Positions 9,573 through 59,962 of a stretch of 64,000 bases of DNA are shown here, one piece after another. Location: the IMG/VR virus record IMGVR_UViG_3300028800_002449. One strand, given 5' to 3'. The translations under genes and the position numbers were made by a program. This DNA comes from a virus. The first letter of the stretch is position 1. Each line of letters opens with the position of its first letter. The notes beneath the pieces are model-generated. The model was not told the origin of the DNA. It did no database searches and was given only the letters and a program-made list of their open reading frames with translations.

Positions 9573-10275
9573 CGGGTTCTTCCTCGTCGACCGCGACAAA
9601 AGGATTCGAGTCGAGATCGGACGCCCCGTCAAAGCCCTCGTCGGGCAACACATGCTTGCAGAGCTTACCGACAAGGCGCGTCTCGAAGATGAGATCTGGA
9701 CCGCCAGCCTCAAGCAAGACCCCATCATCAGGCTCATGTGGACCCGTAAGGAATGGCTCTCCGGGCTCGGCATCAGCGAAGCGCCTCCTCTGCAACAAAC
9801 AGTCGCTCCACCCTCTCCTCAGCTCAGGAACACCAAGGACTCCGTCCTCTGGGGCAAGATCTCCGCGGACGTCGATGCGATCGTCGCCGAGAAGGTTGGC
9901 GACCCGCTCCTCCTCGAAGAGATCTCGACATGGTTCAGGATCGAATTCGACGGGCTCGTCAGATCTCTTTCTCACAGGCTCGGTCGGATCTCGCAGGAGA
10001 AGGCCCACGCCGAGGTCAACAGGATCCAATACGTCGCAGCCTGCCGGATCCTCCACGTCGATCCTGTCGGCGTGGGAAAGCCCATCGACATCGCCATTGC
10101 AAAGGCCGCCAAGAAGAAGCTAATGCGCGCCTACCACCCTGACCTCAACGACGGCGACGTCACGATGCAGAGCCTCTGCGACTCGATCATGGATGCCTTC
10201 GACACCATCGAGTCCTACGCAGATCAGATGAAGAAGCTCGGGAAGAACGACAAAAACAACGTGGAGGTCACATGA
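9554..10275 (+). CDS. J-domain-like protein, paralog 3 (probable GTG start)
   Basis: EVNRIQYVAACRILHV ... AKKKLMRAYHPD ... IMDAFDTIESY; GTG start after an AAGAGAG Shine-Dalgarno-like sequence, overlapping the end of paralog 2. Confidence 0.5.
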
Positions 10276-22173: not shown

Positions 22174-22203
22174 GTTGACAGCTAGTCCGAATGACAAGAT
22201 AGT
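22174..22203 (+). promoter_or_regulatory. sigma70-like promoter: -35 TTGACA, 17-nt spacer, -10 GATAGT
   Basis: Read directly; direct repeat CACTTCGACAAAA at 22158 and 22219. Confidence 0.5.
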
Positions 22204-22214
22204 CACTTGGACAA

Positions 22215-22643
22215 ATGGTCACTTCGACAAAAATGGTGGACAAGAACGGCGTCGTCAAGCGCTGGTCCTACAAGCAGCTCAACGGCACCAGCCTTCAGCC
22301 GTTCCTCGCTGGCGGCTTCGCCCGACACGTCCACGTCCTCCTGTTTCGTGGAGACATGAAGGAGGTCGCCAGGCTCACCTCCGACATGACCCCGCTCGAT
22401 AGAACAGCGGTCAAAGTGGCGATCCAAGAAGATTACGCCCTCTACGAGTTCTATACGGTCTCCTTCGCTCCGGGACGAGAATTCGTCACTCTGGAAGACT
22501 GTGCAACAGCATGGGAAGCAGCCGGTGCGCCCGGCGACGTGGTCGTCATGAAAAACGTCTATGACCACAAGGAGAACGAGTACCGAGGTGTCGACTCCCT
22601 CAACCTCGACGGCTCCGTCTATGGCGTTGTCCCTACCCTCTGA
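22215..22643 (+). CDS. hypothetical protein (142 aa)
   Basis: ORF track; first gene after the promoter. Confidence 0.5.
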   Translation: MVTSTKMVDKNGVVKRWSYKQLNGTSLQPFLAGGFARHVHVLLFRGDMKEVARLTSDMTPLDRTAVKVAIQEDYALYEFYTVSFAPGREFVTLEDCATAWEAAGAPGDVVVMKNVYDHKENEYRGVDSLNLDGSVYGVVPTL

Positions 22644-22657
22644 CGCTTTAGGAACCC

Positions 22658-23386
22658 ATGCCCCACTACAAGTACCCAAGGCCGGCAGTCACCGTCGACG
22701 TCGTCGTGTTCGGAGTGCAGCTGACAGGCGAAGAGCGAGGACTCCGCGTTTTGCTCATCCGACGGAAGAACCCGCCCTTCAAGGGCAAGCTCGCCATCCC
22801 CGGCGGGTTCCTCAACCTTGCCGAGTCGCTCGACGCCGCAGCCTTCAGAGAACTTCTGGAGGAGACTGGCATCAAGCCAGCGTACATCGAGCAGTTGTAC
22901 ACCTTCGGAGCACCCAAGCGCGACCCTCGCGAGCGCGTCGTCACCGTCTCGTACCTCACGCTCGTGAAGAGCGAGGAGCACGTGCTCAAGGCAGGCTCCG
23001 ACGCGAAGGAAGCCAAGTGGCTTCGCATCGTCCCCTCAGGTAACAGCTACTTCTTCCCGGGCGCCGAAGTCGCCCCGCAGGGCCTCGCCTTCGACCATGC
23101 CGAGATCCTAGCCAAGGGCGTCGAGCGCCTGCGAAACAAGATCACGTACACAGGCGTCGCGTTCGACCTGCTCCCCGCGGAGTTCACGATGCCACAGCTT
23201 CAGGGCCTCTACGAGATAGTCCTCGGCCGCCAGATCGACAAGGGCAACTTCCGCCGGAAGATGCGCTCGACCGGCGTCCTCAAGGCCCTCGGCAAGAAGA
23301 GCAAGGGCTCGCGAGGGCTCGACCTCTACGCCTTCGACCGCAGCAGGTACGAGAGCACCAAGAACCGCGTCGACTTCAACGTCTAG
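22658..23386 (+). CDS. NUDIX hydrolase (ADP-ribose pyrophosphatase family) with a C-terminal NrtR-like winged-helix region
   Basis: Nudix box GGFLNLAESLDAAAFRELLEETGI (Gx5Ex7REuxEExGu). Confidence 0.7.
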   Translation: MPHYKYPRPAVTVDVVVFGVQLTGEERGLRVLLIRRKNPPFKGKLAIPGGFLNLAESLDAAAFRELLEETGIKPAYIEQLYTFGAPKRDPRERVVTVSYLTLVKSEEHVLKAGSDAKEAKWLRIVPSGNSYFFPGAEVAPQGLAFDHAEILAKGVERLRNKITYTGVAFDLLPAEFTMPQLQGLYEIVLGRQIDKGNFRRKMRSTGVLKALGKKSKGSRGLDLYAFDRSRYESTKNRVDFNV

Positions 23387-23395
23387 GAGGCCCCC

Positions 23396-24124
23396 ATGGC
23401 GATGGCACACAAAGCTCCTACGGCTCACTACAAGCGGACCAACTACATCTCGTTGCACGCCGTCGAGCAGCTGCGACAGCGGATCGGAAAGAAACACGAT
23501 CTTTTCAGCCGAGACAACAGCGACCTGTCCAACGCCATCGACGAGGCCGTATGCATCGGACTCAAGAAGCCCAACGTCGAGAAGTTCGAGTACGAGGGGA
23601 AGCCCAACCTCGGCGTCGACATCTCCGACTTCTTCGGCTTCCCTCTCAAAGCCGTCGTCGCGAAGAACGAGAAGGAAAACTCGCCGTATCGAGCAGCCGT
23701 CGTCACAATCCTCACCGCCAACATGTCCATGAAGAACGACAAGAGCGGTGCATCCTTCGCGGACGCGATCAGCCCCGAGGTCAAAGCCGCTCTCCGCGCA
23801 GCCATCGAGCAAAAGGACGTGCCTGCCCCCGAGCCCCGTGAAGCTGTCGGTGCTGCTGCACCGCCGAAAGCCATCCCGGCTCGCGCGATCGTCGAATCCA
23901 AGCCTTCGAAGATCTCAACACGCGACGTCTCGCCCGATCGCCGCCTCATCACCTACGTCAAGCCCGGCTCGACAGATCTCGTCATCGAAGAGTTCGCTGC
24001 CCCGGGCGACCTGCGCAACCGCATCTTCGATCTCCATCAGAAGGGAACGCCCCTCGCTGAGATCTCCGTCTGGAAGCCTTCCAAGGCCTCCATCGCCATC
24101 GCGCTCGATTTCGAAGAAGGCTGA
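23396..24124 (+). CDS. hypothetical protein (242 aa) between the NUDIX and NadV genes
   Basis: ORF track; co-oriented and tightly spaced. Confidence 0.5.
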   Translation: MAMAHKAPTAHYKRTNYISLHAVEQLRQRIGKKHDLFSRDNSDLSNAIDEAVCIGLKKPNVEKFEYEGKPNLGVDISDFFGFPLKAVVAKNEKENSPYRAAVVTILTANMSMKNDKSGASFADAISPEVKAALRAAIEQKDVPAPEPREAVGAAAPPKAIPARAIVESKPSKISTRDVSPDRRLITYVKPGSTDLVIEEFAAPGDLRNRIFDLHQKGTPLAEISVWKPSKASIAIALDFEEG

Positions 24125-24149
24125 TCGCTCTAGGAAAGGAAGATCCTCC

Positions 24150-25586
24150 ATGAACAACAACTACGATCCCATGGCGAACCTCATCGCCGACTCCGACAGC
24201 TACAAGTTCGGCCACTGGCTCATGCTGCCCGACGGCACCACGCAGACGCACGCGCACATGCTCTCCCGCGGCGGGCGCTACGGCCGCACCACTCAGTGGG
24301 GCATGCGCCCCATCACCATCCGCATGGCCCAGTGGGCGGAACTCACCACGAAGGAGCGCATGCTCCACGTCGAGGAGTGCGCCGACTTCGCCCCCGACCA
24401 CGGGCTGCCCTTCAACATCGACGACTGGACGTACATCGCCACCGACCTCGGCGGTCGCATCCCCATGCGCATCCGCGCCGCCAAGGAGGGCGCCTCCATC
24501 CCCGTCCGCAACGTGCTTTCCACCTACGACTCGACGGACAAGCGCGTGCCGTGGATCACCGGCTGGTTCGAGACGCAGTTCGTCCGCGCCTGGGCCGGCA
24601 CCACCGTCGCCACCAAGTCGTTCAACGGCGTCAAGGTCTTCTGGGACTTCCTCAAGGAGACCTCCGACGACCCGGCGGGCGAGATCGACTTCAAGCTGCA
24701 CGACTTCGGCTCGCGCGGCGTCACCTGCCCGCAGCAGGCCGCCTTCAACGGCGCCGCCCACCTCGTCAACAGCAAGGGCAGCGACACCGTCATCGCCATG
24801 CTCTACGCCAAGAACGTCTACGGCACCAAGGAGAAGGTCGCCGGCTACAGCATCCCCGCGCTGGAGCACTCGTCGGTCATCCCCTTCAAGGACCAAGAGG
24901 AGTCCTTCATCCGCTTCATCGAGAAGTTCAAGGACCCGAAGTTCAAGTACCTCTCGGCGATCTCCGACACGATCGACATCTACGACTGCGTCGAGAACAT
25001 CTGGTGCGGCACGATGCTCGACCTCGTGAAGGCCAGCGGCAAGACGATCGTCATCCGCCCCGACTCGGGCAAGGCCCCCGTCATCATGCCCGACCTCCTG
25101 CACATCATGGACAGGAAGATCGGCTGCACCACCAACGGGAAGGGCTTCAAGGTCCTGCCGCCCTACTACCGCTTCATCTGGGGCGACGGCAACAAGACGG
25201 AGGACGACATCAGGGACATGCTCATGTCGATCAAGCAGCACGGCTTCTCGGCGTCGAACATGGTCTCGGGCATGGGCGGCGGCTTGCTCCAGCTCGTCGA
25301 TCGCGACATGCAGATGTTCAAGTTCATGGTCTCCGCCATGAACATCAACGGCTCCTGGAGGGAGGTCAAGAAGACGCCGAAGACCGACGTCCACAAGGTC
25401 TCCCGAGCCGGACGGCTCGACCTCATCAAGCGCGAGGGCCAGTACGAGACCGTCAACCTGACGGCAGACCAGGCGTTCCACCCGCTCACCGAGCTTCACA
25501 CCATCTTCGAGGACGGCAAGATCGGCAAGACCTGGGACCTGGACGAGAGCCGCGCCGAGTCCCGTCGCGCCCTCCTCGAAACGTAG
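24150..25586 (+). CDS. nadV: nicotinamide phosphoribosyltransferase (NadV/NAMPT family)
   Basis: About 478 aa; NAMPT-type N-terminus DSYKFGHW and family-typical length; ribosome-binding site AGGAAAGGAAG; start re-called inside track ORF 23748..25586. Confidence 0.8.
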   Translation: MNNNYDPMANLIADSDSYKFGHWLMLPDGTTQTHAHMLSRGGRYGRTTQWGMRPITIRMAQWAELTTKERMLHVEECADFAPDHGLPFNIDDWTYIATDLGGRIPMRIRAAKEGASIPVRNVLSTYDSTDKRVPWITGWFETQFVRAWAGTTVATKSFNGVKVFWDFLKETSDDPAGEIDFKLHDFGSRGVTCPQQAAFNGAAHLVNSKGSDTVIAMLYAKNVYGTKEKVAGYSIPALEHSSVIPFKDQEESFIRFIEKFKDPKFKYLSAISDTIDIYDCVENIWCGTMLDLVKASGKTIVIRPDSGKAPVIMPDLLHIMDRKIGCTTNGKGFKVLPPYYRFIWGDGNKTEDDIRDMLMSIKQHGFSASNMVSGMGGGLLQLVDRDMQMFKFMVSAMNINGSWREVKKTPKTDVHKVSRAGRLDLIKREGQYETVNLTADQAFHPLTELHTIFEDGKIGKTWDLDESRAESRRALLET

Positions 25587-25589
25587 GCG

Positions 25590-25934
25590 ATGGAAGAAGG
25601 TGAGAATAGTTCGAAAGCCTCCGTCGCATCCGCGGCGGCGGCTTCCGATCCCAACGACCTCAAGGGCTGCATCACGTTCTTGGTGCTCCCCGTGGTCATG
25701 CTCGTCGACGGCGTCTGCCTGTCCTCGCTGTGGGGATGGTTCCTGACGCCGCTCGGGCTGCCCAAGATCGGCGTCGCACACGGCGTGGGGCTCATGCTCC
25801 TGCGGAAGTTCTTCACCGTCGGCAGCACGAGACAGGGAAGCCTCAAGAAGGACTACGTCCTCTCGATGCTCCAAGTCAAAATCCTCGCCATGCTCCTTGG
25901 CTACGTCATGTACAGGATCATGATCCGACCATGA
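25590..25934 (+). CDS. small membrane protein
   Basis: Two hydrophobic helices. Confidence 0.45.
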   Translation: MEEGENSSKASVASAAAASDPNDLKGCITFLVLPVVMLVDGVCLSSLWGWFLTPLGLPKIGVAHGVGLMLLRKFFTVGSTRQGSLKKDYVLSMLQVKILAMLLGYVMYRIMIRP

Positions 25935-26362
25935 TCAAGCGTCTCGACGTCGCGCATCGGATGCTGCCGGCAGCTCTCAGCATCCTCACTCTCTTGGCGA
26001 CAGCTCTGCTCTTCATCTGCGACGTGAAACCTTCCCTCTTTCCGCCCCGCTCACATGACGTGTTGGCCGCCACACCCCTCGCGCTCATCGCCGTCGCGTA
26101 CCTCGTCTATCAAGCCATCCGAGTCGTAGGGCTTCTAGAGCTTGTGAAAGCGATCCTCCTCGCCGTCGCCTTCCTCCTGTGGGCTGCGAACCAGCTGTGG
26201 TCGGAACTGCCAGGAGCGCAGCTCTTGAACGATCTGGCCATCGCGCTGTTCGTGCTCGACATGTTCCTCGTCATCATCGGATGGCCATCGTCCTCGCCCG
26301 ACGAGGCCTTCGGTGAGACTTATGCCGAACCGCGCTCGCGATCTGGAGGAAAAGACACATGA
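25931..26362 (+). CDS. integral membrane protein (about 143 aa)
   Basis: ATGA overlap with the upstream gene; four hydrophobic segments. Confidence 0.5.
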   Translation: MIKRLDVAHRMLPAALSILTLLATALLFICDVKPSLFPPRSHDVLAATPLALIAVAYLVYQAIRVVGLLELVKAILLAVAFLLWAANQLWSELPGAQLLNDLAIALFVLDMFLVIIGWPSSSPDEAFGETYAEPRSRSGGKDT

Positions 26363-26784
26363 AGAACGAGATGAGCAACTTCAACCTGCACGTCACCGCC
26401 AACACGACCCATCAGTTCAAGCTCGCGATGGAGATCGCGTTCTTCATCGAGCAAGAGCTGTTCGTCTCGAAGAAGCACTACGAGGTCGCTCGATCCTGGA
26501 AGGTCGAAGACGGATGCCTCGTCCTGTCGAAGTTAGGCGAGGGAGACTCGCTCGCTGAAAATAGGCTCACCCTCTTGCCGATGCCCCTCGACCATGATCA
26601 AGTCATCAACTTCGCATGCGGCTGGCTCCTTTCGGACGAGGCCAAGGCTCTCAAAGGCCCCGATCCAGCCATCGACGATGAAACGAAGGGAGCCTTCCTC
26701 GTCATGGCAACCAACGCCATAGTCAACAGGCGACACGAAATCGTCAGGATCATGCCGATCTGGACATCGCCCGTGACAGCATGA
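26359..26784 (+). CDS. hypothetical protein (141 aa)
   Basis: ATGA overlap with the upstream gene. Confidence 0.5.
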   Translation: MKNEMSNFNLHVTANTTHQFKLAMEIAFFIEQELFVSKKHYEVARSWKVEDGCLVLSKLGEGDSLAENRLTLLPMPLDHDQVINFACGWLLSDEAKALKGPDPAIDDETKGAFLVMATNAIVNRRHEIVRIMPIWTSPVTA

Positions 26785-27032
26785 GCACTGTCGAGATCCA
26801 GCCTCAAGACGTCCAGGACGGCGTCGTGATCGCCTCAGAAGGTCATCCGGAATGTCCAGAGCCCTGCGGCTGCGACGAATCGAACGCGATGCGCGATCTC
26901 CTCGAATGCATCATCCAGTACGACTCCGACGTCAACCCCTGCGACCCTGAACACTGTCAAGGAAAGTGCGCCTTCTGCCAGGCGCGCGTCCTGCTCGAAC
27001 GTCTCGAAGAGAAAAGGAAGCTGCGAAGATGA
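26781..27032 (+). CDS. small Cys-rich protein (83 aa)
   Basis: CPEPCGC ... CDPEHCQGKCAFC. Confidence 0.45.
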   Translation: MSTVEIQPQDVQDGVVIASEGHPECPEPCGCDESNAMRDLLECIIQYDSDVNPCDPEHCQGKCAFCQARVLLERLEEKRKLRR

Positions 27033-27553
27033 GCGAGAAGACGCTCCTGGAGGCTCGCAAGGAGACGTTCGAGGCTGCACTCTTCGGCAAGGGGAAGAAG
27101 TGTCCGTGCTGCGACCGTTTCGTGAAGGTCTACAAGCGCAAGTTCAACAGCGCGATGGGAAGAGCGCTCATCATTCTCTACCGCCACTACAACAGCCCGA
27201 TGGGGATGAAGCTGGGACCCGAGGAGTGGGTTCATTTCCCGACGCTGCTCATGGGAAAGGGTGCTCAGAGGTCGGACGAGGGCAAGCTCGCGATCTGGGG
27301 GCTCGTCGAAAAGCTCTCAGGCCTCCGTGATGACGGCTCGAAACGGAACGGCTTCTACAGGATCACAGATCTCGGACGGAAGTTCGCTCGAAGCGAGATC
27401 GACCTTCCTGCACACGCCTTCCTCTACTACGGCGGCCAAGTGCTCGGGTTCTCCGACGGCGACAAGTACCCGAAGGCGCTCGTGAGGATCGGCGACGTCT
27501 TCGGGAAGTCGTTCAACTATCGCGAGATGATGGAGGCTCCCTATGGCGAGTAA
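27029..27553 (+). CDS. hypothetical protein with a CPCC zinc-ribbon motif (about 174 aa)
   Basis: Start MSEKTLLEAR overlaps the upstream stop. Confidence 0.5.
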   Translation: MSEKTLLEARKETFEAALFGKGKKCPCCDRFVKVYKRKFNSAMGRALIILYRHYNSPMGMKLGPEEWVHFPTLLMGKGAQRSDEGKLAIWGLVEKLSGLRDDGSKRNGFYRITDLGRKFARSEIDLPAHAFLYYGGQVLGFSDGDKYPKALVRIGDVFGKSFNYREMMEAPYGE

Positions 27554-27830
27554 CAGCACGAAGCATTTGGTCATCGTCCTTTCCATCATCAGCGTATTCG
27601 GCGTCATCATAGCGTCGGCAGCCTTCTACGCTACCGACAGAAACAAGGTCGTCGCCGTCGGAGAAAAGCATCCCGACGGATGCACTGACTCCATCGTTCT
27701 CATCGTCGTCGACACCTCAAACGAACACTACTCGTGTCTAGATCCTCTTCAAAAAATAGAGGTCTACCCAGCAGGCATGAACAAATATTCAAGCCCCATG
27801 GCACTCGTCAAGTGTGTCTGCCCTAAGTAG
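27543..27830 (+). CDS. small membrane-anchored protein
   Basis: N-terminal transmembrane segment IVLSIISVFGVIIASAAFY. Confidence 0.4.
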   Translation: MASNSTKHLVIVLSIISVFGVIIASAAFYATDRNKVVAVGEKHPDGCTDSIVLIVVDTSNEHYSCLDPLQKIEVYPAGMNKYSSPMALVKCVCPK

Positions 27831-27852
27831 TTTTTATCTTGCTTAAGATAAA
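27826..27852 (+). promoter_or_regulatory. conserved promoter element TTTTTATCTTGCTTAAGATAAAC
   Basis: Matches TTGCTTAAGATA from the 12343 promoter; inverted repeat TTATCTT/AAGATAA. Confidence 0.4.
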
Positions 27853-27874
27853 CCTGAGAAGTTAGGATACATCC

Positions 27875-28060
27875 ATGGCCTTCACCTGCGCCGAGTGCCA
27901 CGACAAGACGAAGTGCAAGTACCACGTCCCTCCGACCTACCCGATGGGTGAGCACCCGTCGTGGCCGGGCGTGAAGGTCTACCTGCCTGCCATCTTCACG
28001 AACATCTCCGTCGGTCGATGCGAGGACTGCAAGAAGTCGAGGCCGTGTGTTGACTGCTAA
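27875..28060 (+). CDS. small Cys-rich protein (61 aa)
   Basis: CAECHDKTKC ... CEDCKKSRPCVDC. Confidence 0.4.
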   Translation: MAFTCAECHDKTKCKYHVPPTYPMGEHPSWPGVKVYLPAIFTNISVGRCEDCKKSRPCVDC

Positions 28061-28253
28061 GACAAGAAACCAGATCTACTCCATGCTCATCGGAGCTACG
28101 GTCTCCGGCTTTACGTCATACGAAGGTGGCAGTTTCTTAGTCGCTGTCATCGTCGGAGGCGGCGCAGGCTTCCTCGTGGGTCTGGTGTGGTTCAAAGATG
28201 AGCCCATCAAGAATAAAGGCCGTCGTGCCTCGCAAAGAGAAGACGGAGCTTGA
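28047..28253 (+). CDS. small membrane protein (68 aa)
   Basis: Gly-zipper transmembrane segment VIVGGGAGFLVGLVW. Confidence 0.35.
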   Translation: MLTAKTRNQIYSMLIGATVSGFTSYEGGSFLVAVIVGGGAGFLVGLVWFKDEPIKNKGRRASQREDGA

Positions 28254-28457
28254 GCAGGTTGAGCAGCTCGAAGCGTTGATGGACGAACAGGTCCCGAGCG
28301 CTCTTCAACGTGCTGCGTCCGACTCCAGGAAGACGTCAGCCACATGGGTCGGCTCGGGCGACTTCCTCGTGCTCCTCGTCTGCGACGCCACGTCGGCCAT
28401 CAAGCCCACCCAGAAGCGCTACACCTGCCGGATCCTCGACCTCAAGGAGAAGTGAAA

Positions 28458-29675
28458 GTGGCAACTAGATCTGAAAGTGGCAACTCAACTCTTCAAGAGA
28501 TCCTCCTCACCGGCAAGACCGACCTATACGTCGTCGCCACCGGAGCGGGGACGAACCTGCTCACGAGCCTCTGGGCCACCCCCGGTGCCAGCGCCTACCT
28601 CAAGGGATTCCACTTCCCCTACGACACGGCCGAGACCGACTCGTTCCTCGGCTTTCAACCGGCGGCCTACTGCACCGAGAAGACTGCGATCTTGATGGCC
28701 ACCGAGGCCTACGTCAGGGCTCGTCGCCTCCACTACCTCCGCGGGGAAGATCGCAACGCCGCCACCGTCGGGCGGAAAGCCATCGGGCTCGCCGTGACGG
28801 CCTCCGTCGCTTCCATGACGGAGCATCGTGGAGAGCACCGTGCCTTCATCGCCACCGTCAGCAACCACACGCCTCCGACCTTCACCTCAAAGAAGATCGG
28901 TCTTCAGAAGGGCGTCGGTCTCTTCACGCGCATGAGTGACGACGCAATCGTCTCACATGCAGCCATGGAAGAGTTGTCCCAGACCCTGCGCGACGAGGCC
29001 TACTCGGTGCCCAACTACACTGAAGATCAGGTCATAGAGATGCTTTTCGAGCATCCATATCCTCTCGGGCACGAAGGCTACAGCCTCCGGAACGACAAAG
29101 TCGTCTTCATCCCTGGCAACTTCAATCCTCTGCATCAATGTCACCAGTCGATGGGACAGACGTTGAGGTCGCTCTACGGCTACAAGCCCGTCTACACGAT
29201 CTGCGTGGACCCCCCGCACAAGCCCGCCCTCGCCCTCGTCGACATGCTCGACAGGGTCGCGATGTTTCGCGCGCTCGCGCCACATGCCGCTCTCCTCTTC
29301 ACCAGGAAGGATCCTCTCTTCATCGACAAAATGAAGGCCCGCCCCAGCTCGACGTGGGCCGTCGGCGGCGACACGCTCGATCGCCTCCTCGATCCGAAGT
29401 GGGGCCCGTCTACGGACGAGGTCTGCGACGTCATCAAGGAGACCGATTCGACCATCTACTTGTTCCCTTCGAAGCACGGTGAAGCTTCCATCGATGCGCA
29501 CTCCATCTTCAGGAAATACACGTCCGACAAGCTTGCCCAACTCATGCACAAGAAGATCCTTGGCGTCGACGTGGATCTTCCTGAGATCCGCTCCTCCGCC
29601 ATCAGGGCAGCCGCGATGAACCCGCCACCCTTCGACATCCACGAGCTGGACGCCGGCTCCGAACCCCGGAGATGA
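28458..29675 (+). CDS. fusion protein: CinA-C/PncC-like (NMN amidohydrolase fold) N-domain plus NMN/NaMN adenylyltransferase-like C-domain
   Basis: N-terminal ATGAGTNLLTSLWATPGASAYLKGFHFPYDTAE resembles the PncC AESCTGGLLA..LT..PGSSAYFLGGVVAYSNEAK block. C-terminal FIPGNFNPLHQCH carries the HxGH nucleotidyltransferase motif. GTG start after GAAGTGAAA. Confidence 0.6.
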   Translation: MATRSESGNSTLQEILLTGKTDLYVVATGAGTNLLTSLWATPGASAYLKGFHFPYDTAETDSFLGFQPAAYCTEKTAILMATEAYVRARRLHYLRGEDRNAATVGRKAIGLAVTASVASMTEHRGEHRAFIATVSNHTPPTFTSKKIGLQKGVGLFTRMSDDAIVSHAAMEELSQTLRDEAYSVPNYTEDQVIEMLFEHPYPLGHEGYSLRNDKVVFIPGNFNPLHQCHQSMGQTLRSLYGYKPVYTICVDPPHKPALALVDMLDRVAMFRALAPHAALLFTRKDPLFIDKMKARPSSTWAVGGDTLDRLLDPKWGPSTDEVCDVIKETDSTIYLFPSKHGEASIDAHSIFRKYTSDKLAQLMHKKILGVDVDLPEIRSSAIRAAAMNPPPFDIHELDAGSEPRR

Positions 29676-31957
29676 CGACCACCCCCGATCGCGCTCAGAT
29701 CATCGTCGCCGAGCGCGACCAGAAGACGAGACAGAACACGTCGGACTCGCCGGTCCGCGGTCGGTGGTACCTCGTCAAGAACGGCGACAAGGACGACGAC
29801 CTCGACGTCGACAAGATCGAGAAGGATGTCGACGACTTCTCATACCGCACGTCGGTCACCGAGGAAGACGTAGTTGCAGCTGAGAAAGCCGGCGGTTGGA
29901 TCGGATGCGTCACCCACGTCGGCAGCAACTACGTGGAGGTCAAGGGTCCCTCAGATAGCACCGGGATGTTCGTCACGCGCATCCACTACGAGAACTTCTG
30001 GCGCCGATGCTCTCCCATAGACGACTCCGACCTCATCATCGACGGGAAGATCTCCCGCTACCAAGACCAGACACGCAAGCTCATGGCCGAGGTCAAGGCC
30101 CTCACGGCCAAACTCGGCGTAGCCCCTCGGCAGGAGATCGCAGACGGGTCAGAATCGGAGGTCAAGGCGATCTCGATCCGAAGCTCCGAGCCCGTCGAGG
30201 AGTACAAGAAGGCCCTCATCAAGGCCGAGGAGAAGACACTCCCCGACCTCTTCGAGAAGATCGAGGAGTCGAACGCGATGATGAGCACGTGGATGAAGGC
30301 CAAGATCATCCCGCTCGAAGCCGAATCGGAAGCGCTCAAGGACACCGTCGGGCTCGTCAAAGATCGCATCTTCAGCGTCGAGCTTTACGCAGGCCTCGTC
30401 GAGAAGGTCGTGCGCGTGCGCGACGGCAAGCCGGCCGAAAACGACGCGCAGGTTCACCTCATGCAGCGCCGCGCCTACATGGACGAGGAGTGCCTCGTCG
30501 GCTACGAGACGGGCGGCATGGACTACCAGAACATCGAAGACTTCGACAAGTGGCTCTGCAAGCCGGCCAACTTCCAGCGTCTGCTTCCCTACCCCAAAAC
30601 CTTCATCGCCTTCCAAGTCCGCCGTGAGAAGAAAGAGCGCGAGGCCTCCTCGTGGGGCGAGTACGTCCAGGTCATGGCTCAGGAGAAGGCTGACGAGTCG
30701 ACATACCTCTACGTCCGGAACGGTGAGCAGCTCTATCGCATCAAGACGAAGATCGAGTTCGAGGAGCAGCTCTTCCCCGACACCAACAACAAGATCTTCT
30801 CCAGCAGCAAGCTGTGGGCGAACATCTTCATGAACACCGTCAAGGACATCATCAGCGACGAGGAATTCCAGGGGAAGCTCGAAGACTACCTGGAAGACCA
30901 GAAGCGTCTGAAGAAGATCCCCAAGAAAGATCGGTGGCATTCAAGTCAACACGACGACCCTCGCGAGCGCTACCACCCGCTCACGCAGGACAACGTCTAC
31001 TACGACGACATCATGGCCGTGCTCAACGCCGAGAAGAAGAAGCACAACCGCCTCGTGCTCGTCATGCAGGGCCTCCTCGACCGATCGCCTGTCCTCCATC
31101 CACACCCACCCTGGCAGCTGTGGACGCACGAGGGGTTCAACGCAGCCTTCAAGCTCGTCTACGACGGCACGAGGGCTCTGTCGGCCGGAGACAAGCCCGA
31201 CTTCGAAGCGTATCGCGCGAAGCTCAACGCTCATCTCACGACAGGATCCGTGACCGTCGGTCAGGAGATCTCGTGGCTCCGTCGCGAGGCCGAGCGAGTC
31301 AACCGCGAGAGAGAAAACAGCCCTCACCGTCACCCGTCCGACCGCGAGTACAATCTCTATCGACCATCACACGATCCTGGTCCCGGCAAGCTCGCCATCG
31401 TCGACAGGTACTCGGAGAGCAAGCGAGCTTGCACCTACCGATGGGTGCGCAAGAACCGTCACTACCCCTACGAAAAGGACGTGAACACGTCTCTCACGAC
31501 CGGCGAAGAGAACCTCCTGAACGTCGACGCATACAAGCCCGGCGACTTTCACGTCTTCTTCGACGACCCCCGTACTCGACTCGAATACCTGAGGTGGGCT
31601 CCGATCCTCCTTGAGGCCGAGGAGTGTCATGCGGGCAACCGCAAGATCAAGCCTTGCAAGAGGCTGCCACCCGTCCAGCGTCATCCCAAGCCCGTCGACC
31701 CTCAGATCGATCCGCGACCCGCCGATCTCGACTTCAAGGAGAAGCCGCCGAAGCCCCCCATCGAGGACAAGTACCTCGGCAAGCGCGCCACCATCAACTT
31801 CGACTTCGAGACGAGGGCGAACGACAAGTTCAAGAAGGGCGAACTCGTCATCATCACCAGCTACCACAGGCGAAAAGTCGACGTCACTTCCGCCAAGGAC
31901 AAGGACAAGCGCTGCCATCACCTCGAACTCAACTGGATCACCCTCACCGGAGAATGA
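29672..31957 (+). CDS. large hypothetical protein (761 aa), translationally coupled to the PncC-NMNAT fusion
   Basis: ATGA overlap at 29672; no recognisable catalytic motif; coiled-coil and Lys/Pro-rich C-terminal region. Confidence 0.55.
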   Translation: MTTTPDRAQIIVAERDQKTRQNTSDSPVRGRWYLVKNGDKDDDLDVDKIEKDVDDFSYRTSVTEEDVVAAEKAGGWIGCVTHVGSNYVEVKGPSDSTGMFVTRIHYENFWRRCSPIDDSDLIIDGKISRYQDQTRKLMAEVKALTAKLGVAPRQEIADGSESEVKAISIRSSEPVEEYKKALIKAEEKTLPDLFEKIEESNAMMSTWMKAKIIPLEAESEALKDTVGLVKDRIFSVELYAGLVEKVVRVRDGKPAENDAQVHLMQRRAYMDEECLVGYETGGMDYQNIEDFDKWLCKPANFQRLLPYPKTFIAFQVRREKKEREASSWGEYVQVMAQEKADESTYLYVRNGEQLYRIKTKIEFEEQLFPDTNNKIFSSSKLWANIFMNTVKDIISDEEFQGKLEDYLEDQKRLKKIPKKDRWHSSQHDDPRERYHPLTQDNVYYDDIMAVLNAEKKKHNRLVLVMQGLLDRSPVLHPHPPWQLWTHEGFNAAFKLVYDGTRALSAGDKPDFEAYRAKLNAHLTTGSVTVGQEISWLRREAERVNRERENSPHRHPSDREYNLYRPSHDPGPGKLAIVDRYSESKRACTYRWVRKNRHYPYEKDVNTSLTTGEENLLNVDAYKPGDFHVFFDDPRTRLEYLRWAPILLEAEECHAGNRKIKPCKRLPPVQRHPKPVDPQIDPRPADLDFKEKPPKPPIEDKYLGKRATINFDFETRANDKFKKGELVIITSYHRRKVDVTSAKDKDKRCHHLELNWITLTGE

Positions 31958-32226
31958 ACATGGGCACCATCGCGAGTCAGCGGTTCGAAGGCGTCGTCTC
32001 GGAGGTCCTCGACGGACAGGTCATGAAGGACGGAGAGACCATCGGCATCCTGTGGCCCGACCAATTCAAGGAGAACCACAAGGTCATGATCGTCTCCGAG
32101 ATCGTGCCCAACGGGACGCGCGAGAGAGCCTACGTCAAGATCAACATCCACGGCATCTACGTGCCCGTCTTGATCATGCACCTCATCTCTCTCGGCGCCG
32201 AAGTCTCACGCAAATCAGTCTGGTAG
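31954..32226 (+). CDS. hypothetical protein (90 aa)
   Basis: ATGA overlap with the upstream gene; start re-called within track ORF 31624..32226. Confidence 0.4.
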   Translation: MNMGTIASQRFEGVVSEVLDGQVMKDGETIGILWPDQFKENHKVMIVSEIVPNGTRERAYVKINIHGIYVPVLIMHLISLGAEVSRKSVW

Positions 32227-32236
32227 GAGGAACGAC

Positions 32237-32632
32237 ATGTCGATCATCGAGAAATACAAGCTCCGTGAAGGTCAGATGCGCGTCAACGAGCACGTCCACA
32301 ACGGCCGATGGTACGGACGCGACGGCGTCGGGATCGGCTGGGGCGACCTAACCAAAGAGGACCTCTTCCGCATCGCCGACACCATCTCCGACGACGACGT
32401 CTTCTACGTCGTCGGCGAGACCGACTCCTACTTCAACTCTTCATCGACCAACGGCCTCACGCTTCAACAAGTCAAGGATCTCGCACGATTCACCATCACC
32501 GCCAAGAAGGTGACCGTCCACCAGAAGTGGCTCTCGCGACTCGAAATGAAACAGAAGTCCTTCTCCACCCTCGAAGAGTATGAGCGAGAGCTTCAGCCTC
32601 AGATCCGTCCGCGCGACGTCGTCGAGATCTGA
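32237..32632 (+). CDS. hypothetical protein (131 aa)
   Basis: ORF track. Confidence 0.5.
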   Translation: MSIIEKYKLREGQMRVNEHVHNGRWYGRDGVGIGWGDLTKEDLFRIADTISDDDVFYVVGETDSYFNSSSTNGLTLQQVKDLARFTITAKKVTVHQKWLSRLEMKQKSFSTLEEYERELQPQIRPRDVVEI

Positions 32633-32745
32633 CCAGTTTTATCTTGTCCAAAAGACAAAAGCATTCTACCGTCTGAGCACATGATCCGTCTCGTCGCCAT
32701 CAACTGGCTCATGTGGACCTACCTTGAGCAGAAGCGGCCTTGGAA

Positions 32746-33522
32746 ATGAACATCACCCGCGTATCCATCAGCGGTGCCGACGACGCCATCGATCCGATCG
32801 ACCTCCTGCGGCTCTCGGTCGAGTTCCCCTTCGTCGAGTGGGGGATCCTCTACTCAGAGAAGCGTCAAGGGACGCCTCGATACCCGTCGGCAGAGTGGCG
32901 CGAGAACCTCATCGGCCTGCTGCTCAACACGGTCAAGGGGAAGAACCTTCACCTGGCGCTCCACCTCTGCGGCAAGGCCTCTCGCGACGTCTTCGAGGGC
33001 AGGGACAGCAAGTGGTTCGCGAGGAAGGACTTCCACGCACCCTACGAGCGCGTCCAGCTGAACGGCTTTTCACCCTACAAGGACAAGCTGAAGTACCTGC
33101 CACTCAACAGCGACCCGTACGACAAGGATCAGCTCGCCAACCTCTTCAAATTCTGCCCGTGCGAGTTCATCGTCCAGTGTGCCGACGAGGAAGAACTCAA
33201 GATCGTCGACGACTTCGCCGTCAAGAACAACCTCCAGTTCCTGAACGCGCTCTACGATCCTTCCGGCGGCAGGGGCCTCAGGAACGTCGAATGGCCGCAC
33301 CTGCCGACCAGGCAGGTCAACGTCGGCTATGCGGGCGGCATCGGTCCCGACAACGTCTCCCAGATCGTCTCCGACATCATGGGCAAGCCGAAGACGGACA
33401 AGATGGAGGCCACCTGGATCGACATGGAGAGCCGCATCCGGTCCAACGAAGACAAATTCGACCTCGCGCTCGTCAGAGAAGTCCTCGTCGCCTGCATGAA
33501 GCTCGTCGGAGGTGAGAAGTGA
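32746..33522 (+). CDS. phosphoribosylanthranilate isomerase (TrpF)-like (beta/alpha)8 barrel protein
   Basis: ITRVSISGADDAI...FVEWGIL, VQLNG, NVGYAGGIGPDNVSQIV align with the TrpF blocks ICGIT..DA..A...GAD..GF, VQLHG and ILAGGLNPENV. Confidence 0.55.
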   Translation: MNITRVSISGADDAIDPIDLLRLSVEFPFVEWGILYSEKRQGTPRYPSAEWRENLIGLLLNTVKGKNLHLALHLCGKASRDVFEGRDSKWFARKDFHAPYERVQLNGFSPYKDKLKYLPLNSDPYDKDQLANLFKFCPCEFIVQCADEEELKIVDDFAVKNNLQFLNALYDPSGGRGLRNVEWPHLPTRQVNVGYAGGIGPDNVSQIVSDIMGKPKTDKMEATWIDMESRIRSNEDKFDLALVREVLVACMKLVGGEK

Positions 33523-34070
33523 AGGACCGCATCTGCATGTACCCCGGCACGTTCGGTCCGATCACGCTCGGCCACGAGTGGATCATCGCGGAGTCTCTCA
33601 AGATCTTCGACTACGTCCACGTCCTCATCGCCGAGAACAAGGCCAAGAAGCCGATCTTCAGCATGAACGAACGCCTCTCCATGATCGAGAGCGTCACCAA
33701 CAAGTACGGCGGCAAGGTCGAGGTCGTGAAGAGCCACGACGTCTACACTGTGCAAGCAGCCAAGATCCTGAAGGCCACACACATCGTCCGAGGTATCCGC
33801 AGCGGCATCGACTTCGACTACGAGCGCAGCGTCGATCTGCTCAACAGGGACATCCACAACGCCCTTCGTGAAGACGAGTCAGCCAGCCATGGCGTGTCCA
33901 CCATCTACATGACTCCTCCACGACACCTGGCCGAGGTCAGCTCTTCCATGGCCATGAGCCTCGTAGGGTTCAAAGGGTGGGAGACCGTCATCAAGAACTA
34001 CGTCTCTCAGCCTGTTTTCGAAGCCATCAAGAAGGCCTATGATGGCGGCCACCTCGCCAACCGACCATGA
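33519..34070 (+). CDS. CoaD-like (phosphopantetheine adenylyltransferase family) nucleotidyltransferase
   Basis: MYPGTFGPITLGH (PPAT signature YPGSFDPIT.GH) and VRGIRSGIDFDYERSVDLLNR (PPAT IRGLR...DFEYE...MN). Confidence 0.6.
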   Translation: MKDRICMYPGTFGPITLGHEWIIAESLKIFDYVHVLIAENKAKKPIFSMNERLSMIESVTNKYGGKVEVVKSHDVYTVQAAKILKATHIVRGIRSGIDFDYERSVDLLNRDIHNALREDESASHGVSTIYMTPPRHLAEVSSSMAMSLVGFKGWETVIKNYVSQPVFEAIKKAYDGGHLANRP

Positions 34071-34705
34071 ACAACCAAGCGACCATCGAGACCCTCAGGA
34101 GGTCCTGGAACAAGATCTCCTGGAACCGACCCGATCACGGATGTCTCATCGGCTTCGACGCAATCCTCGGCCGATATCAACGGCCAGGTCGGCACTATCA
34201 CGACCTTCGACACCTCGTGGAGTGTCTCGAACATTCTGAGATCGACAAGGCACGGAACCCGACGGCAGTGCGCCTAGCGCTATTCTTCCACGACTACATC
34301 TACGACACCGAAGTCCATCACGGCAACGAGGAGGCCAGCGCCGACTTCGTCTCGCTCTACGTCGCGACCTGGCTCCAGGATCCTTCCGACGCCTACACCG
34401 CCTGCCATCACATCCTCGCGACAGAGAAGCACAAGGTCGGAACCGTGCCCGAGACCATCCAGGACAGCAAGCTCGTCATCGACTGCGACTTGTCGATCCT
34501 CGGACGCCCCATGGATCGCTACGCGCAGTACGAGAGCGACATCCAGCTCGAATACAGCCACGTCCCGAGCCAGATCTTCAAAGAGGCCAGACGCACCATC
34601 ATGCTCGGCTTCCTCAACCGCAAGGACATCTACTTCAACGAGAGCTTCCGCGAGCGCTACGACAAACAGGCTCGCAAGAACATCTCCGTCTACTGGTCGC
34701 GATGA
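34067..34705 (+). CDS. HD-domain phosphohydrolase
   Basis: GRHYHDLRH ... LALFFHDYIYD (H..HD...D metal-binding pattern). Confidence 0.5.
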   Translation: MNNQATIETLRRSWNKISWNRPDHGCLIGFDAILGRYQRPGRHYHDLRHLVECLEHSEIDKARNPTAVRLALFFHDYIYDTEVHHGNEEASADFVSLYVATWLQDPSDAYTACHHILATEKHKVGTVPETIQDSKLVIDCDLSILGRPMDRYAQYESDIQLEYSHVPSQIFKEARRTIMLGFLNRKDIYFNESFRERYDKQARKNISVYWSR

Positions 34706-34995
34706 TGCCTGGCAACAACGAGGCATTCCACAGCTACATGGGTAAAGAAGAAACCTCCAAGCGACCCGGCGACCTCTGGATCACTTCTGGCGGCAACACC
34801 CGCAAGTTCAAGAAGCTGCTGGAGAAGCACGGCTTCATCCCCAAGCCGGAGTCACATTCGATCATCGACTACCAGTGGTCCATCACCGGCAGGTCGCTGA
34901 AAATGACTTTCGCCTCGGGCGACCAGATCTTCCTCCGTGTCACTCGCGTCACAAGCGTCGCGAAGAAGGTCATCAAGAAGGCTGCCAAGAGATGA
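34702..34995 (+). CDS. hypothetical protein (97 aa)
   Basis: ATGA overlap with the upstream gene. Confidence 0.45.
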   Translation: MMPGNNEAFHSYMGKEETSKRPGDLWITSGGNTRKFKKLLEKHGFIPKPESHSIIDYQWSITGRSLKMTFASGDQIFLRVTRVTSVAKKVIKKAAKR

Positions 34996-49998: not shown

Positions 49999-52269
49999 AT
50001 GAGGATCACCTACAGAGACGGCATCTACATCGCCATCTCGAAATACGAGGAGCGCGCCGCCCTCTTGCAGGCCGGCTTCTCGTTCCACCCCGGCTCGCTC
50101 GAATGCAAGGCCGGGCCCAGCGCGTGCCCTGCCTGCAAGACCGGCCTGGGCAAGGGCTGGTGGACGCGCAGAGCCGAGGCCGCCGTCCGCCTGTCGAGGT
50201 TCGTCGACGAGAAGGCCAAGAACAAGCTCTCGCAACACGTCGAGGCCGTCCAGCTGTCGTGGGCCACCGACGCCAGCATCGAGATCCCCCATCCCGAGGG
50301 TCGCGAATTTCGCCCCTATCAGAAGGCCGGCATCGCCTTCATGATCCGCAGGGAAGCCTCCATCCTTGGTGATGAACCAGGGCTCGGCAAGACGGCTCAG
50401 GTCATCGGAGTCATCAACCTAGACCTCTCCATCAAGAACGTCTTCGTCGTCTGTCCTGCCAACCTCCGCATCAACTGGCAGCGCGAAGCCAACATGTGGC
50501 TCGCCAAGGACGAACGGAGCTGGCGCTTCCACATCGTCGATGAAGATCTCCCGATCCCCGACCACGCCAACTTCGTGATCTCGAACTACAACCGGATCAC
50601 GATCATCCGCAAGCCCTGCCACGTCTGCGGCGGCGAAGCACGGAAAGAGTTCGTCTGCCCGACCTGCAACGGAACAGGAAACGGCGAACGACACCCGATC
50701 CTGTGCGCGACTTGCAGCGGCAAGAAGCACGTCTACTGCGCAGAATGCAAAGGTCGCGGAAAGCTCCCCGGCAGCAACATCAAGATCGTCGACTCCGTCA
50801 TGGCTCGCCAGTGGGACCTCCTCGCCGTCGATGAAGCCCACGCCATCAAGAACGAAGACGCTGCACGCACTCAGGCCATCCTCGGGAACGCATTCAGAAA
50901 GAAGCCCGGGATCGCCCACAGATCATCTCGACGCATCTTCATGACGGGCACGCCCATGCCCAACCGTCCCGTCGAGATGTGGCCCATCCTCGCCAACTGC
51001 AACCCGAAGGAGTTCGGAAACAGGCGCTTCTTCGTCAAGAGGTACTGCGCCGCCCACGAGGAGTTCGTCAGCGCCAAGAAGAAGGTCCTCAAGGTCGACG
51101 GAGCCTCCAACCTCGAAGAGCTTCAGGAACGACTTCGAAGCACGGTCATGGTCAGACGCCTCAAGAGGGACGTGCTCAAGGAGCTGCCCCCGAAAGTACG
51201 TCAGGTCGTCCCGCTCGTGCCCACGGCCGCCGCCAAGAAGCTCATCGCCGAGGAGATCGAGATCTGGGAGACCAAGTTCGGCGGCGACTTGAACGTCGCT
51301 CAAGAGCAGCTCGCCATCGCCGAAGAGACGCAGGACAAGACCGAGTATCAGAACGTCGTCGAGAAGCTCAAGTACATCCAGAAGGTCGCCTTCATGGAAA
51401 TGGCGCAGGTCAGGCACAACGTCGCCGTCGCCAAGATCCCGTCCGTCATCGAACACCTCAAGGAGAAGTTCGACGGCGGCGTCGACAAGATCATCTGCTT
51501 CGCCCACCACAAGGACGTCATCAACGCCATCGCCGACAAGTTCGGCGACAAGGCCGTCAGCCTCTTCGGTGACACCAAGAAGGAAGATCGACAGAGCGCG
51601 ATCGATCGCTTCCAGACAGACAAGAAGGTGAAACTATTCATCGGCGGCATCATGGCCGCCGGCACAGGCCTCACGCTCACGGCAGCCTCACACGTCGTCT
51701 TCGCCGAGCTTGACTGGACGCCTTCCAACGTCACCCAGGCCGAGGATCGCGCCCACCGACTCGGACAAGCCAACAGCGTCCTCGTCGAACACCTCGTCCT
51801 CGACGGGTCGCTAGACGCACGCATGGCGCAGATGCTCGTCGAGAAACAGGAGATCGCCGACAAGGCGCTCGACAACCCCACCGAGATCGGCACCGTCAAG
51901 CTCCTGTTCGAGTCGCGTCCAGACGTGCCAGTCGAGCCCGTACCGCTCTGGAAGAAGATGCTCCTCAAGACGGCGATGGTCACCCTCGCGCAACGCAGAG
52001 ACCCTGCCGTCGAGGGCAGCCATGGATTTTCTTCCTTCGACGCCACCATCGGTCAGAAGCTCGCCACCTGGCGCGGCGACTTCTCGGACAAGCAAGCAGC
52101 CCTCGCGCTCACCTTCAGCAAGAAGTACCGCAAGCAGCTCTCAGAAGAACTCCAGAAACAGATCGGAGTCTACGAGCCGCCGAAAGCAGCCGATCTCAGG
52201 AAAGCCAACTTCGGCAAGAAGCCCGAAGAGTCCGTGCTCGACATGATGACGCGGAGAAAAGCATCGTGA
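49999..52269 (+). CDS. Snf2-family DNA-dependent ATPase/helicase with an N-terminal zinc-finger region
   Basis: GDEPGLGKTAQ (Walker A), LAVDEAHAIKN (DEAH box), helicase C-terminal motifs AGTGLTLTAASHVVFAELDW...QAEDRAHRLGQ. Confidence 0.8.
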   Translation: MRITYRDGIYIAISKYEERAALLQAGFSFHPGSLECKAGPSACPACKTGLGKGWWTRRAEAAVRLSRFVDEKAKNKLSQHVEAVQLSWATDASIEIPHPEGREFRPYQKAGIAFMIRREASILGDEPGLGKTAQVIGVINLDLSIKNVFVVCPANLRINWQREANMWLAKDERSWRFHIVDEDLPIPDHANFVISNYNRITIIRKPCHVCGGEARKEFVCPTCNGTGNGERHPILCATCSGKKHVYCAECKGRGKLPGSNIKIVDSVMARQWDLLAVDEAHAIKNEDAARTQAILGNAFRKKPGIAHRSSRRIFMTGTPMPNRPVEMWPILANCNPKEFGNRRFFVKRYCAAHEEFVSAKKKVLKVDGASNLEELQERLRSTVMVRRLKRDVLKELPPKVRQVVPLVPTAAAKKLIAEEIEIWETKFGGDLNVAQEQLAIAEETQDKTEYQNVVEKLKYIQKVAFMEMAQVRHNVAVAKIPSVIEHLKEKFDGGVDKIICFAHHKDVINAIADKFGDKAVSLFGDTKKEDRQSAIDRFQTDKKVKLFIGGIMAAGTGLTLTAASHVVFAELDWTPSNVTQAEDRAHRLGQANSVLVEHLVLDGSLDARMAQMLVEKQEIADKALDNPTEIGTVKLLFESRPDVPVEPVPLWKKMLLKTAMVTLAQRRDPAVEGSHGFSSFDATIGQKLATWRGDFSDKQAALALTFSKKYRKQLSEELQKQIGVYEPPKAADLRKANFGKKPEESVLDMMTRRKAS

Positions 52270-52291
52270 CCCCCAACGCGAAAGAGATCGA

Positions 52292-53266: not shown

Positions 53267-53272
53267 AACAAC

Positions 53273-53584: not shown

Positions 53585-53639
53585 AAGATCTTCTCCACAC
53601 CAGACCTCGGCGACAAAGGCTTAGAAGAGAGAAAGAAAA

Positions 53640-54545: not shown

Positions 54546-54559
54546 AAGGAAAAACCCCA

Positions 54560-55216: not shown

Positions 55217-55263
55217 GCTCGACCCAAAAAGACTGAACGAAGAAAGACGGAAGGATAGAGAAG

Positions 55264-59950: not shown

Positions 59951-59962
59951 ATCTCTGACAAG

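Follow-up and report, generated by a model that had tools for sequence, protein, structure and literature searches.

A 761-codon gene in a densely packed viral operon

The gene investigated here lies in a 64,000-nucleotide stretch of viral DNA (IMG/VR virus record IMGVR_UViG_3300028800_002449), which is referred to as the window. It encodes a 761-aa protein and is located on the plus strand between a gene for a nucleotidyltransferase and a small gene, within the following arrangement.

29672..31957, plus strand: gene for the 761-aa protein, from the open reading frame (ORF) list and translation; ATG start, stop codon TGA at 31955-31957
29672..29675, plus strand: ATGA start/stop overlap with the upstream nucleotidyltransferase gene, read directly from the sequence
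31950..31962, plus strand: downstream junction with GGAG at 31950-31953, ATG at 31954 and ATG at 31960, read directly from the sequence

The ORF represents a genuine gene rather than a chance reading frame, because its G+C content at third codon positions (GC3 = 0.84) is close to that of the neighbouring genes and because it has full-length homologues by the hundreds, with E-values as extreme as 0. At the upstream junction, its ATG at 29672 shares nucleotides with the stop codon of the preceding gene, a TGA at 29673-29675. The downstream gene, which ends at 32226, has two in-frame starts and accordingly encodes 88-90 aa. The ATG at 31954 overlaps the stop codon of the 761-codon gene in another ATGA, while the ATG at 31960 lies 2 nt past this stop and is preceded by the GGAG at a distance of 6 nt. 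From the sequence, either of these may be the true start. Since there are two possible starts, and since the same junction shows a 7-nt gap in a relative with 65% identity (locus L057), the downstream junction is tight but an overlap is not certain. An earlier reading of the window, made from its letters alone and referred to below as the sequence-only reading, had described this ORF of 761 codons, at exactly the coordinates above, as the largest gene of its island, joined by start/stop overlaps to the genes on both sides. The ORF and the upstream overlap were confirmed, and the gene is indeed the largest in the co-directional block at 22215-34995, where NAMPT measures ~480 aa. On the downstream side, the tight junction was retained while the overlap became uncertain in view of the rival ATG.

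The 761-aa protein represents a large family without annotation

Searches of the protein against Pfam, NCBIfam and PHROGs gave no match, nor did PADLOC-DB, which holds known defence-system proteins, at E <= 0.1, or the PDB sequences in single-sequence or profile searches. The same Pfam and NCBIfam scans did detect NAMPT, CTP_transf_like and CoaD in the neighbours of the gene. When all 48 aligned family members were scanned with Pfam at E <= 1, no consistent match was obtained. The statement in the sequence-only reading that the protein has no recognisable motif thus held across Pfam, PHROGs, PADLOC, NCBIfam and the PDB sequences. By contrast, homologues were abundant: a word-indexed search returned at least 1,139, none of them with a Pfam domain or a name, and 2,242 clusters at 50% identity with E <= 1e-3 emerged from an exhaustive profile search, 879 of them with E <= 1e-30. 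No family name was found in public records, and no mention of the protein was found in the literature on the carrier phages, DUF488 and pQBR57.

The window protein matched the family over its full length (E = 0 to 1e-174). In the alignment of 48 sequences, mean column identity was 45% with ~80 invariant columns. Conservation was strong and even over residues ~76-660 (mean top-residue frequency 0.57-0.65), whereas residues 1-75 and 661-761 were variable or absent among relatives, many of which stop near residue 660. The residues E244, Q265, D271-E272-E273, N350, Q466, R471, D498, N519 and Y639 were invariant even in the divergent branch represented by Flavobacterium phage MaF61.

Three forms could be distinguished in the wider superfamily: a short form of ~620-770 aa, a MaF61-type form of ~930 aa and a long form of ~1,100-1,150 aa, represented by gp128 of phage Tunturi_5 and by a 1,131-aa plasmid protein. 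The superfamily has as its hallmarks an N-terminal beta domain, a helical hairpin, an alpha/beta core, an invariant MDEE triad and the motifs R-N/D-G and G-L-L-D-R, all of which are present in the window protein. The long form aligned with the window protein by hhalign over 486 columns (probability 99%, E 2.4e-18) at an identity of ~21%. Over these ~490 aligned columns the two have in common the N-terminal beta domain, the helical hairpin and the core, along with the motifs MDEE, R-[ND]-G, G-L-(L)-D-x-R and N-A-x-L-x-x-G-S. They differ at the C-terminus, where ~480 extra residues of the long form replace the short linker rich in Pro and the small barrel that end the window protein. The long form is itself wholly unannotated, and a search for fusions among the homologues of MaF61 ORF71 and Tunturi_5 gp128 revealed no Pfam domains or names. 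Judged by these sequence and profile comparisons, the 761-aa protein belongs to a very large, undescribed superfamily.

Family members are carried by large mobile elements

Almost all carriers of the family are large mobile elements, namely large or jumbo phages, megaplasmids, conjugative plasmids and an occasional prophage. Cultured phages with a family member numbered only four: Erythrobacter phage vB_EliS-L02, Mesorhizobium phage Cp1R7A-A1, Flavobacterium phage MaF61 and Tunturiibacter phage Tunturi_5. IMG/VR contributed 49 family loci, on contigs with a median length of 120 kb, 15 of which were at least 200 kb; for NAMPT loci, likewise from IMG/VR, the median was 30 kb (p = 5e-7). Metagenome contigs with a family member reached 484-620 kb. 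In addition, 71 plasmids of 190 kb to 1.3 Mb carried the gene, including pQBR57, megaplasmids of P. aeruginosa and P. putida, a B. pseudomallei plasmid, actinobacterial plasmids and 39 conjugative MOBH plasmids; Providencia was also represented. Among 185,579 species genomes, only 12 contained a family member, mostly on contigs of metagenome-assembled genomes. Carriers of the long form were Tunturi_5 (gp128), plasmids of Providencia, Proteus and Moellerella, and Burkholderia, Ralstonia, Agrobacterium, Herbaspirillum and Bordetella.

Individual carriers provided some further observations. The long-form gene of Tunturi_5, an acidobacterial jumbo phage (locus L077, 6980-10282), encodes a protein 38% identical to that of enterobacterial MOBH conjugative plasmids. 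On these plasmids, among them Providencia pLarge (locus L074, 8494-11889), the long-form gene lies ~1 kb downstream of RepB; the 1,131-aa protein beside RepB is found on MOBH plasmids of Providencia, Proteus and Moellerella. A chromosomal copy was present on a 3.68-Mb Rhodospirillaceae contig (locus L068, 2089-16896), where it occupies the end of a prophage between an S24 repressor and an integrase. The gene order there is S24 repressor, DUF2303, Nmad5 (overlapping the start of the family gene), a gene for 157 aa, DUF5131 (Gp37/Gp68), integrase, and the host genes recJ and glpX; DUF5131 was also found near the B. pseudomallei plasmid copy (locus L075).

Predicted architecture of the 761-aa protein

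AlphaFold modelling of the full-length protein gave a mean predicted local distance difference test score (pLDDT) of 77.6 and a predicted template modelling score (pTM) of 0.50. The model comprises a disordered acidic N-terminus, a small beta domain, two long helices, an alpha/beta core, and a Pro-rich linker with a C-terminal beta domain, which correspond to the following positions.

29672..29896, plus strand: residues 1-75, acidic and poorly conserved N-terminus, largely disordered in the model (pLDDT 36-66; conservation 0.25, occupancy 0.59, isoelectric point (pI) 4.5)
29897..30025, plus strand: residues 76-118, small conserved beta domain, WLGCVTHVGSNY...RIHF.EFW, a candidate SH3-like barrel
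30026..30391, plus strand: residues 119-240, a hairpin or coiled coil made up of two long helices (119-148 and 175-240)
30377..31657, plus strand: residues 236-662, conserved alpha/beta core, which matches no solved fold
30482..30490, plus strand: codons of the acidic triad D271-E272-E273, invariant in subfamilies A1, A2 and A3 and aligned with MDEEL of the long form
31652..31954, plus strand: Pro-rich linker (661-700) and basic C-terminal beta domain (701-761), a part that varies among relatives and is missing from many

The long helices were as conserved as the core, in which the motifs YMDEECL, RNGE, LQGLLDRSPV, GDPGPG, FFDDPRTR and LLEAEE stand out. The D271-E272-E273 triad is a candidate metal or ligand site, for which we infer a possible catalytic role. 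Residues 701-760 were modelled with a pLDDT of about 90, and the C-terminal part has a pI of 9.5 and a conservation of 0.39; the pI of the whole protein is 6.45. As no hydrophobic segment is present (maximum Kyte-Doolittle hydropathy 0.96), the protein is predicted to be soluble.

The model contains a five-stranded small barrel of about 55-60 residues of the SH3-like/KOW/Tudor type, and the best structural matches of the protein were KOW/L24-type barrels. The SH3-like barrels matched, which include the KOW domains of Spt5, NusG and L24, Tudor domains and the N-terminal domain of Hpy99I, each covered less than 10% of the protein at 4-20% identity and showed no sequence similarity to it, and the proteins that carry them have no counterpart of its ~400-residue core. 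This resemblance says nothing specific on function. For the core, fold comparison with the solved structures of the PDB revealed no relative. None of the NAD-using enzyme folds (ADP-ribosyltransferase, Sir2, macrodomain, Nudix or Rossmann) was recovered in the structure comparison, and neither a DNA-binding nor an NTPase domain was detected in the protein. The check proposed in the sequence-only reading, remote homology combined with structure prediction, thus yielded a large family, a long form and a confident model, but no known fold or annotated family.

Several candidate assignments were rejected. An HUH-type 'HPH' motif and a CHHC zinc site in the N-terminal domain were not kept in divergent members, and an R-S-E pattern had residue spacing unfit for an ADP-ribosyltransferase. 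YMDEE could not be regarded as an RT-like YxDD motif, being placed in a helix and with no palm fold. Also dismissed were four further identities whose folds are in the PDB but gave no match: chimallin, protelomerase, large serine recombinase and subunits of phage RNA polymerase.

The gene does not regularly belong to the NAD module

The sequence-only reading had proposed the 761-aa protein as a candidate new component of the NAD pathway. As a dedicated enzyme, regulator or scaffold, it would then serve phage NAD+ salvage together with NAMPT and NMNAT. This idea drew on the position of the gene, which shares an operon with the NMNAT-like upstream gene and overlaps its stop, and the whole window arrangement was kept in L057. 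NAMPT was found within 10 kb of 7 out of 76 distinct family loci (the window, L057, L001, L029, L035, L025 and L046), which is above uniformly random placement; these loci fall into three clades of the neighbour-joining tree and show three different arrangements. Moreover, a PnuC-like gene lies 4 kb from the family gene on Pseudomonas megaplasmids.

Against this, 69 of the 76 family loci had no NAMPT nearby, and relatives at 58% and 48% identity had no NAD genes within 8 kb. Among the flanks of the family loci searched, the NMNAT-like upstream gene had no homologue outside L057, and the megaplasmid copies had no adjoining NAD module. In the reverse direction, we inspected the 80 phage loci with the NAMPT closest in sequence to that of the window, and a family member was present in just one, which is on the same contig as L035. 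Co-occurrence with nadV across phages had been named beforehand as the test on which the idea should stand or fall, and it essentially failed both ways. NARP2 is the phage NAD+ reconstitution pathway formed by Nampt and Nmnat, and the described NARP pathways are two-gene pathways (bioRxiv 10.1101/2024.02.11.579819, PMC13464706). NARP1, NARP2 and NARP3 as described involve no protein of the present kind (bioRxiv 10.1101/2024.02.11.579819, PMC13464706). The window recalls NARP2 in that the gene lies within the co-directional block of NAMPT and its start overlaps the stop of the NMNAT-like gene. It differs from NARP2 in that the protein has neither sequence nor fold similarity to Nampt (NAPRTase family) or Nmnat, the family is missing from 79 of the 80 phage NAMPT loci, and NAD genes are lacking in the vicinity of most members.

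We therefore conclude, from the outcome of the forward and reverse co-occurrence tests and from the NARP pathways that do without it, that the NAD module does not regularly include the gene. Its position in the NAD block is a local arrangement common only to close relatives. Likewise, the start/stop overlaps in relatives occur with whichever gene adjoins, including peptidyl-tRNA hydrolase, DUF488-like, Nmad5 and unknown genes, so that the ATGA coupling carries no functional information. It reflects dense operon packing and is no evidence of a shared pathway. With no NAD-binding or NAD-using fold detected in the protein either, a dedicated role in NAD+ salvage is largely refuted and appears very improbable.

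Neighbourhoods of family members

When the ORFs of the flanks were clustered all against all and 125 immediate neighbours were scanned with Pfam, no partner proved to be conserved beyond a few loci. The family gene is thus a self-contained single-gene module whose neighbours change between elements, and it is typically found among small unknown genes and accessory functions. To judge the neighbour counts, 79 NAMPT loci served as control. NADAR was present at 5 of 76 family loci and at none of the 79 controls (p = 0.026), and small stand-alone DUF262/GmrSD_N (ParB-fold) proteins were encoded within 4 kb at 6 of 76 family loci, again with none in the 79 controls (p = 0.013). The latter cases span all three subfamilies and are mostly upstream on the same strand, at the following positions.

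L076, 7299-7895: DUF262/GmrSD_N neighbour
L159, 8628-9305: DUF262/GmrSD_N neighbour
L065, 5490-6116: DUF262/GmrSD_N neighbour
L023, 7647-8171: DUF262/GmrSD_N neighbour
L064, 15702-16337: DUF262/GmrSD_N neighbour
L053, 7325-7873: DUF262/GmrSD_N neighbour

Neither tRNA/tmRNA genes (16/56 family loci versus 21/44 NAMPT loci) nor RNA ligase/RtcB genes (4/76 versus 10/79 controls) were enriched, and a link to tRNA arrays and RNA repair was rejected on this comparison.

Establishment and anti-defence genes are known to cluster in plasmid leading regions (PMC11541004). Genes of a leading region lie beside oriT in the DNA that is transferred first and are expressed early from ssDNA promoters. Phage accessory islands likewise collect genes of this kind. 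The surroundings of the family resemble such islands, since its members adjoin Acb1, AcrVA2-like, NADAR, an orphan DNA methyltransferase, PcfJ, small ParB-fold proteins, NAD salvage genes and, near one member, a SAM lyase. Furthermore, the family gene is close to genes of a type IV secretion system on two plasmids. A likeness to leading regions in particular is suggested by the neighbours Acb1, AcrVA2-like, TopoIII, DotM, TraN, PcfJ and a DNA methyltransferase. At individual loci, one member had DUF4942, Endonuclease_NS and TraN nearby, and another had PcfJ, a DNA methyltransferase and DUF5131.

Separately, a 23-kb stretch of a 131.5-kb Agrobacterium leguminum plasmid (locus L159, 363-23459) holds a ResT/TelK protelomerase, Acb1 (anti-CBASS), a Y-family polymerase, an AcrVA2-like protein, a type IA topoisomerase (TopoIII) and DotM around the long-form gene. 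From its gene content, it looks like a dense establishment or anti-defence island on a probably linear plasmid or phage-plasmid. A tRNA gene with anticodon CTA (amber-suppressor type; 'Pyl' according to ARAGORN) was located at 9774-9847 in both L032 and L037, ~150 bp upstream of the family member, and phage-borne tmRNA genes were present in L010, L012 and L014.

Possible function of the family

The reading that we favour, to which we assign a probability of about 0.4, is that the protein is an early establishment or counter-defence factor which acts on a universal target via a conserved acidic and Arg-rich site in its core. It is proposed by association. Early action on a universal bacterial target is suggested by the accessory-region habit of the family together with its unusual conservation across very different host phyla. 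The gene would sit in accessory regions where counter-defence and establishment genes gather, and the protein would act early after entry on nucleic acid, a nucleotide or a core machine that is universal in bacteria. Its working site would lie in the novel alpha/beta core, at the residues that are invariant even in the MaF61 branch, while binding or oligomerisation would fall to the SH3-like barrels and the long helical hairpin. The outcome would be help with establishment or escape from host defence. The suggestion of an anti-defence effector in the sequence-only reading survives to the extent that the gene recurs in accessory islands with counter-defence-type genes, which is an association only.

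Several points weigh against the favoured reading. The context argument is qualitative, with two small enrichments whose p values of about 0.01-0.03 are uncorrected and derive from one control set. Strong conservation and large size are unusual for anti-defence genes of the protein-inhibitor type, whose products are typically far smaller and far less conserved than the 761-aa protein. The PDB fold comparison and the profile libraries yielded no catalytic fold or known motif for an enzymatic role, and the neutral overall charge gives no hint of nucleic-acid binding. Finally, a structural relative may exist among the AFDB/BFVD models, the fold comparison having covered solved structures. In a bolder version, which we consider rather doubtful, the protein would be the founding example of an undescribed new-fold enzyme superfamily that jumbo phages, megaplasmids and conjugative plasmids share as a broad-spectrum establishment or counter-defence factor directed at a universal host target.

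Alternatively, the protein could act in the replication, partition, organisation or repair of big phage and plasmid genomes, and not in a conflict over defence. The confinement of the family to large elements speaks for such a maintenance role, as do the short distance to RepB on Providencia plasmids, the location of the MaF61 homologue between helicases/primase and DNA polymerase, the recurrent small DUF262 proteins, and the Ku, HTH_ParB, TopoIII and Y-family polymerase genes of some neighbourhoods; the long conserved helical hairpin also recalls SMC- or KfrA-like proteins. However, the position relative to replication genes is not conserved, the protein has a neutral pI and no detectable DNA-binding or NTPase domain, and with only four cultured phages carrying the family, it is not needed for large genomes generally. 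On balance, we regard replicon maintenance as unlikely. Another conceivable function is one linked to RNA repair or translation. RNA or the ribosome would then be the ligand of the KOW/L24/Tudor-like barrels, and phage tRNAs and RNA ligases would be the partners of the protein, for instance against tRNA-cleaving defences. Such a function would fit the nature of the best structural matches and the tRNA arrays near the gene in the window and several other loci. It would also fit locus L161, where the family gene is succeeded directly by an RNA ligase gene and then by one for a class I tRNA synthetase, RtcB being encoded at a distance of 8 kb. The same holds for the RNA ligase and annotated RNA-binding protein near Tunturi_5 gp128, and for the peptidyl-tRNA hydrolase gene, which L029 and L035 possess and which in L001 overlaps the stop of the family gene. 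Yet the control counts given above argue against a specific link and the plasmid carriers have no tRNA context, making this function improbable. Least credible is a virion-associated or injected structural protein. Homology to a capsid or tail family, which the sequence-only reading had named as decisive against its proposal, was looked for and not found: there was no structural match in PHROGs or Pfam and no fold match to capsid, portal or tail families. The gene is moreover placed among metabolic, early-type and accessory genes, far from structural modules, and the family occurs on many plasmids.

Whatever its activity, a family of more than 2,000 clusters whose strong conservation extends over elements of Alpha-, Beta- and Gammaproteobacteria, Acidobacteria, Bacteroidota and Actinomycetota, without a name, a Pfam or PHROG entry or a recognisable fold, represents a sizeable blind spot in mobile-element biology. 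Its being common to large phages and megaplasmids points to a function shared by any big DNA molecule that establishes in a bacterial cell. Tractable carriers are available in pQBR57 (family member PQBR57_RS01610) in Pseudomonas fluorescens SBW25, and in the phages vB_EliS-L02 of Erythrobacter (UIS25268.1) and Cp1R7A-A1 of Mesorhizobium (gp066).

Setting of the gene in the window

The 761-codon gene belongs to a co-directional block that ends near 35.2 kb, where it faces converging minus-strand genes. After NAMPT, the block continues with small unknown genes, the nucleotidyltransferase gene, the 761-codon gene, two small genes and the genes for a PRAI-like protein, a CoaD-like protein and a phosphohydrolase. 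The annotated features in the block and in the remainder of the window are as follows.

22215-34995, plus strand: co-directional gene block (context), with a sigma70-like site ahead of it at 22175-22203
22658-23386, plus strand: NrtR-type regulator (NUDIX and NrtR_WHD), from profile scans
about 24147-25586, plus strand: NAMPT, from profile scans
28344..29675, plus strand: upstream gene, a CTP_transf_like nucleotidyltransferase in its C-terminal half (Pfam E 1.5e-6, residues 256-422)
32740-33522, plus strand: PRAI-like protein, from profile scans
33519-34070, plus strand: CoaD-like nucleotidyltransferase of 183 aa (NCBIfam CoaD, 130 versus a 103-bit cut-off)
34067-34705, plus strand: phosphohydrolase (phrog_19425)
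3405-5300, minus strand: VWA-domain protein of 631 aa
10627-21714, minus strand: 35 tRNA genes in an array that serves nearly all amino acids, upstream of the NAD block
49999-52269, plus strand: SNF2 helicase
52292-53266, plus strand: PolB-type 3'-5' exonuclease
53640-54545, plus strand: ParB_N protein
60570-62726, plus strand: RecD2-like helicase

The upstream gene had been read from the sequence as a PncC-NMNAT gene. Its assignment as a nucleotidyltransferase was upheld, but in the Pfam and NCBIfam scans the NMNAT models stayed below their cut-offs, the N-terminal half gave no PncC/CinA or other signal, and the product had no match among PDB sequences. Because the orthologue in L057 measures 377 aa, the true start of this gene may be near 28541.

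The NrtR-type regulator, a member of a bacterial repressor family of NAD genes, heads the NAMPT-containing block and is also present in L057. NAMPT itself has a GC3 of 0.97, compared with 0.76-0.88 in all other genes of the block, which suggests a different history or different expression demands. The product of 33519-34070 scores as CoaD (pantetheine-phosphate adenylyltransferase) and not as NMNAT; on this score, the island may touch CoA as well as NAD metabolism. Transcription of the tRNA array leads away from the NAD block, and in Cp1R7A-A1 a comparable array is found within a few kb of the family member. The helicase, exonuclease and ParB_N genes listed last make up a replication and repair region (49999-62726, plus strand). 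Overall, the window element resembles the CbK-like siphophages of Alphaproteobacteria, and the cluster of proteins 100% identical to the 761-aa protein includes one member on a 261-kb contig.

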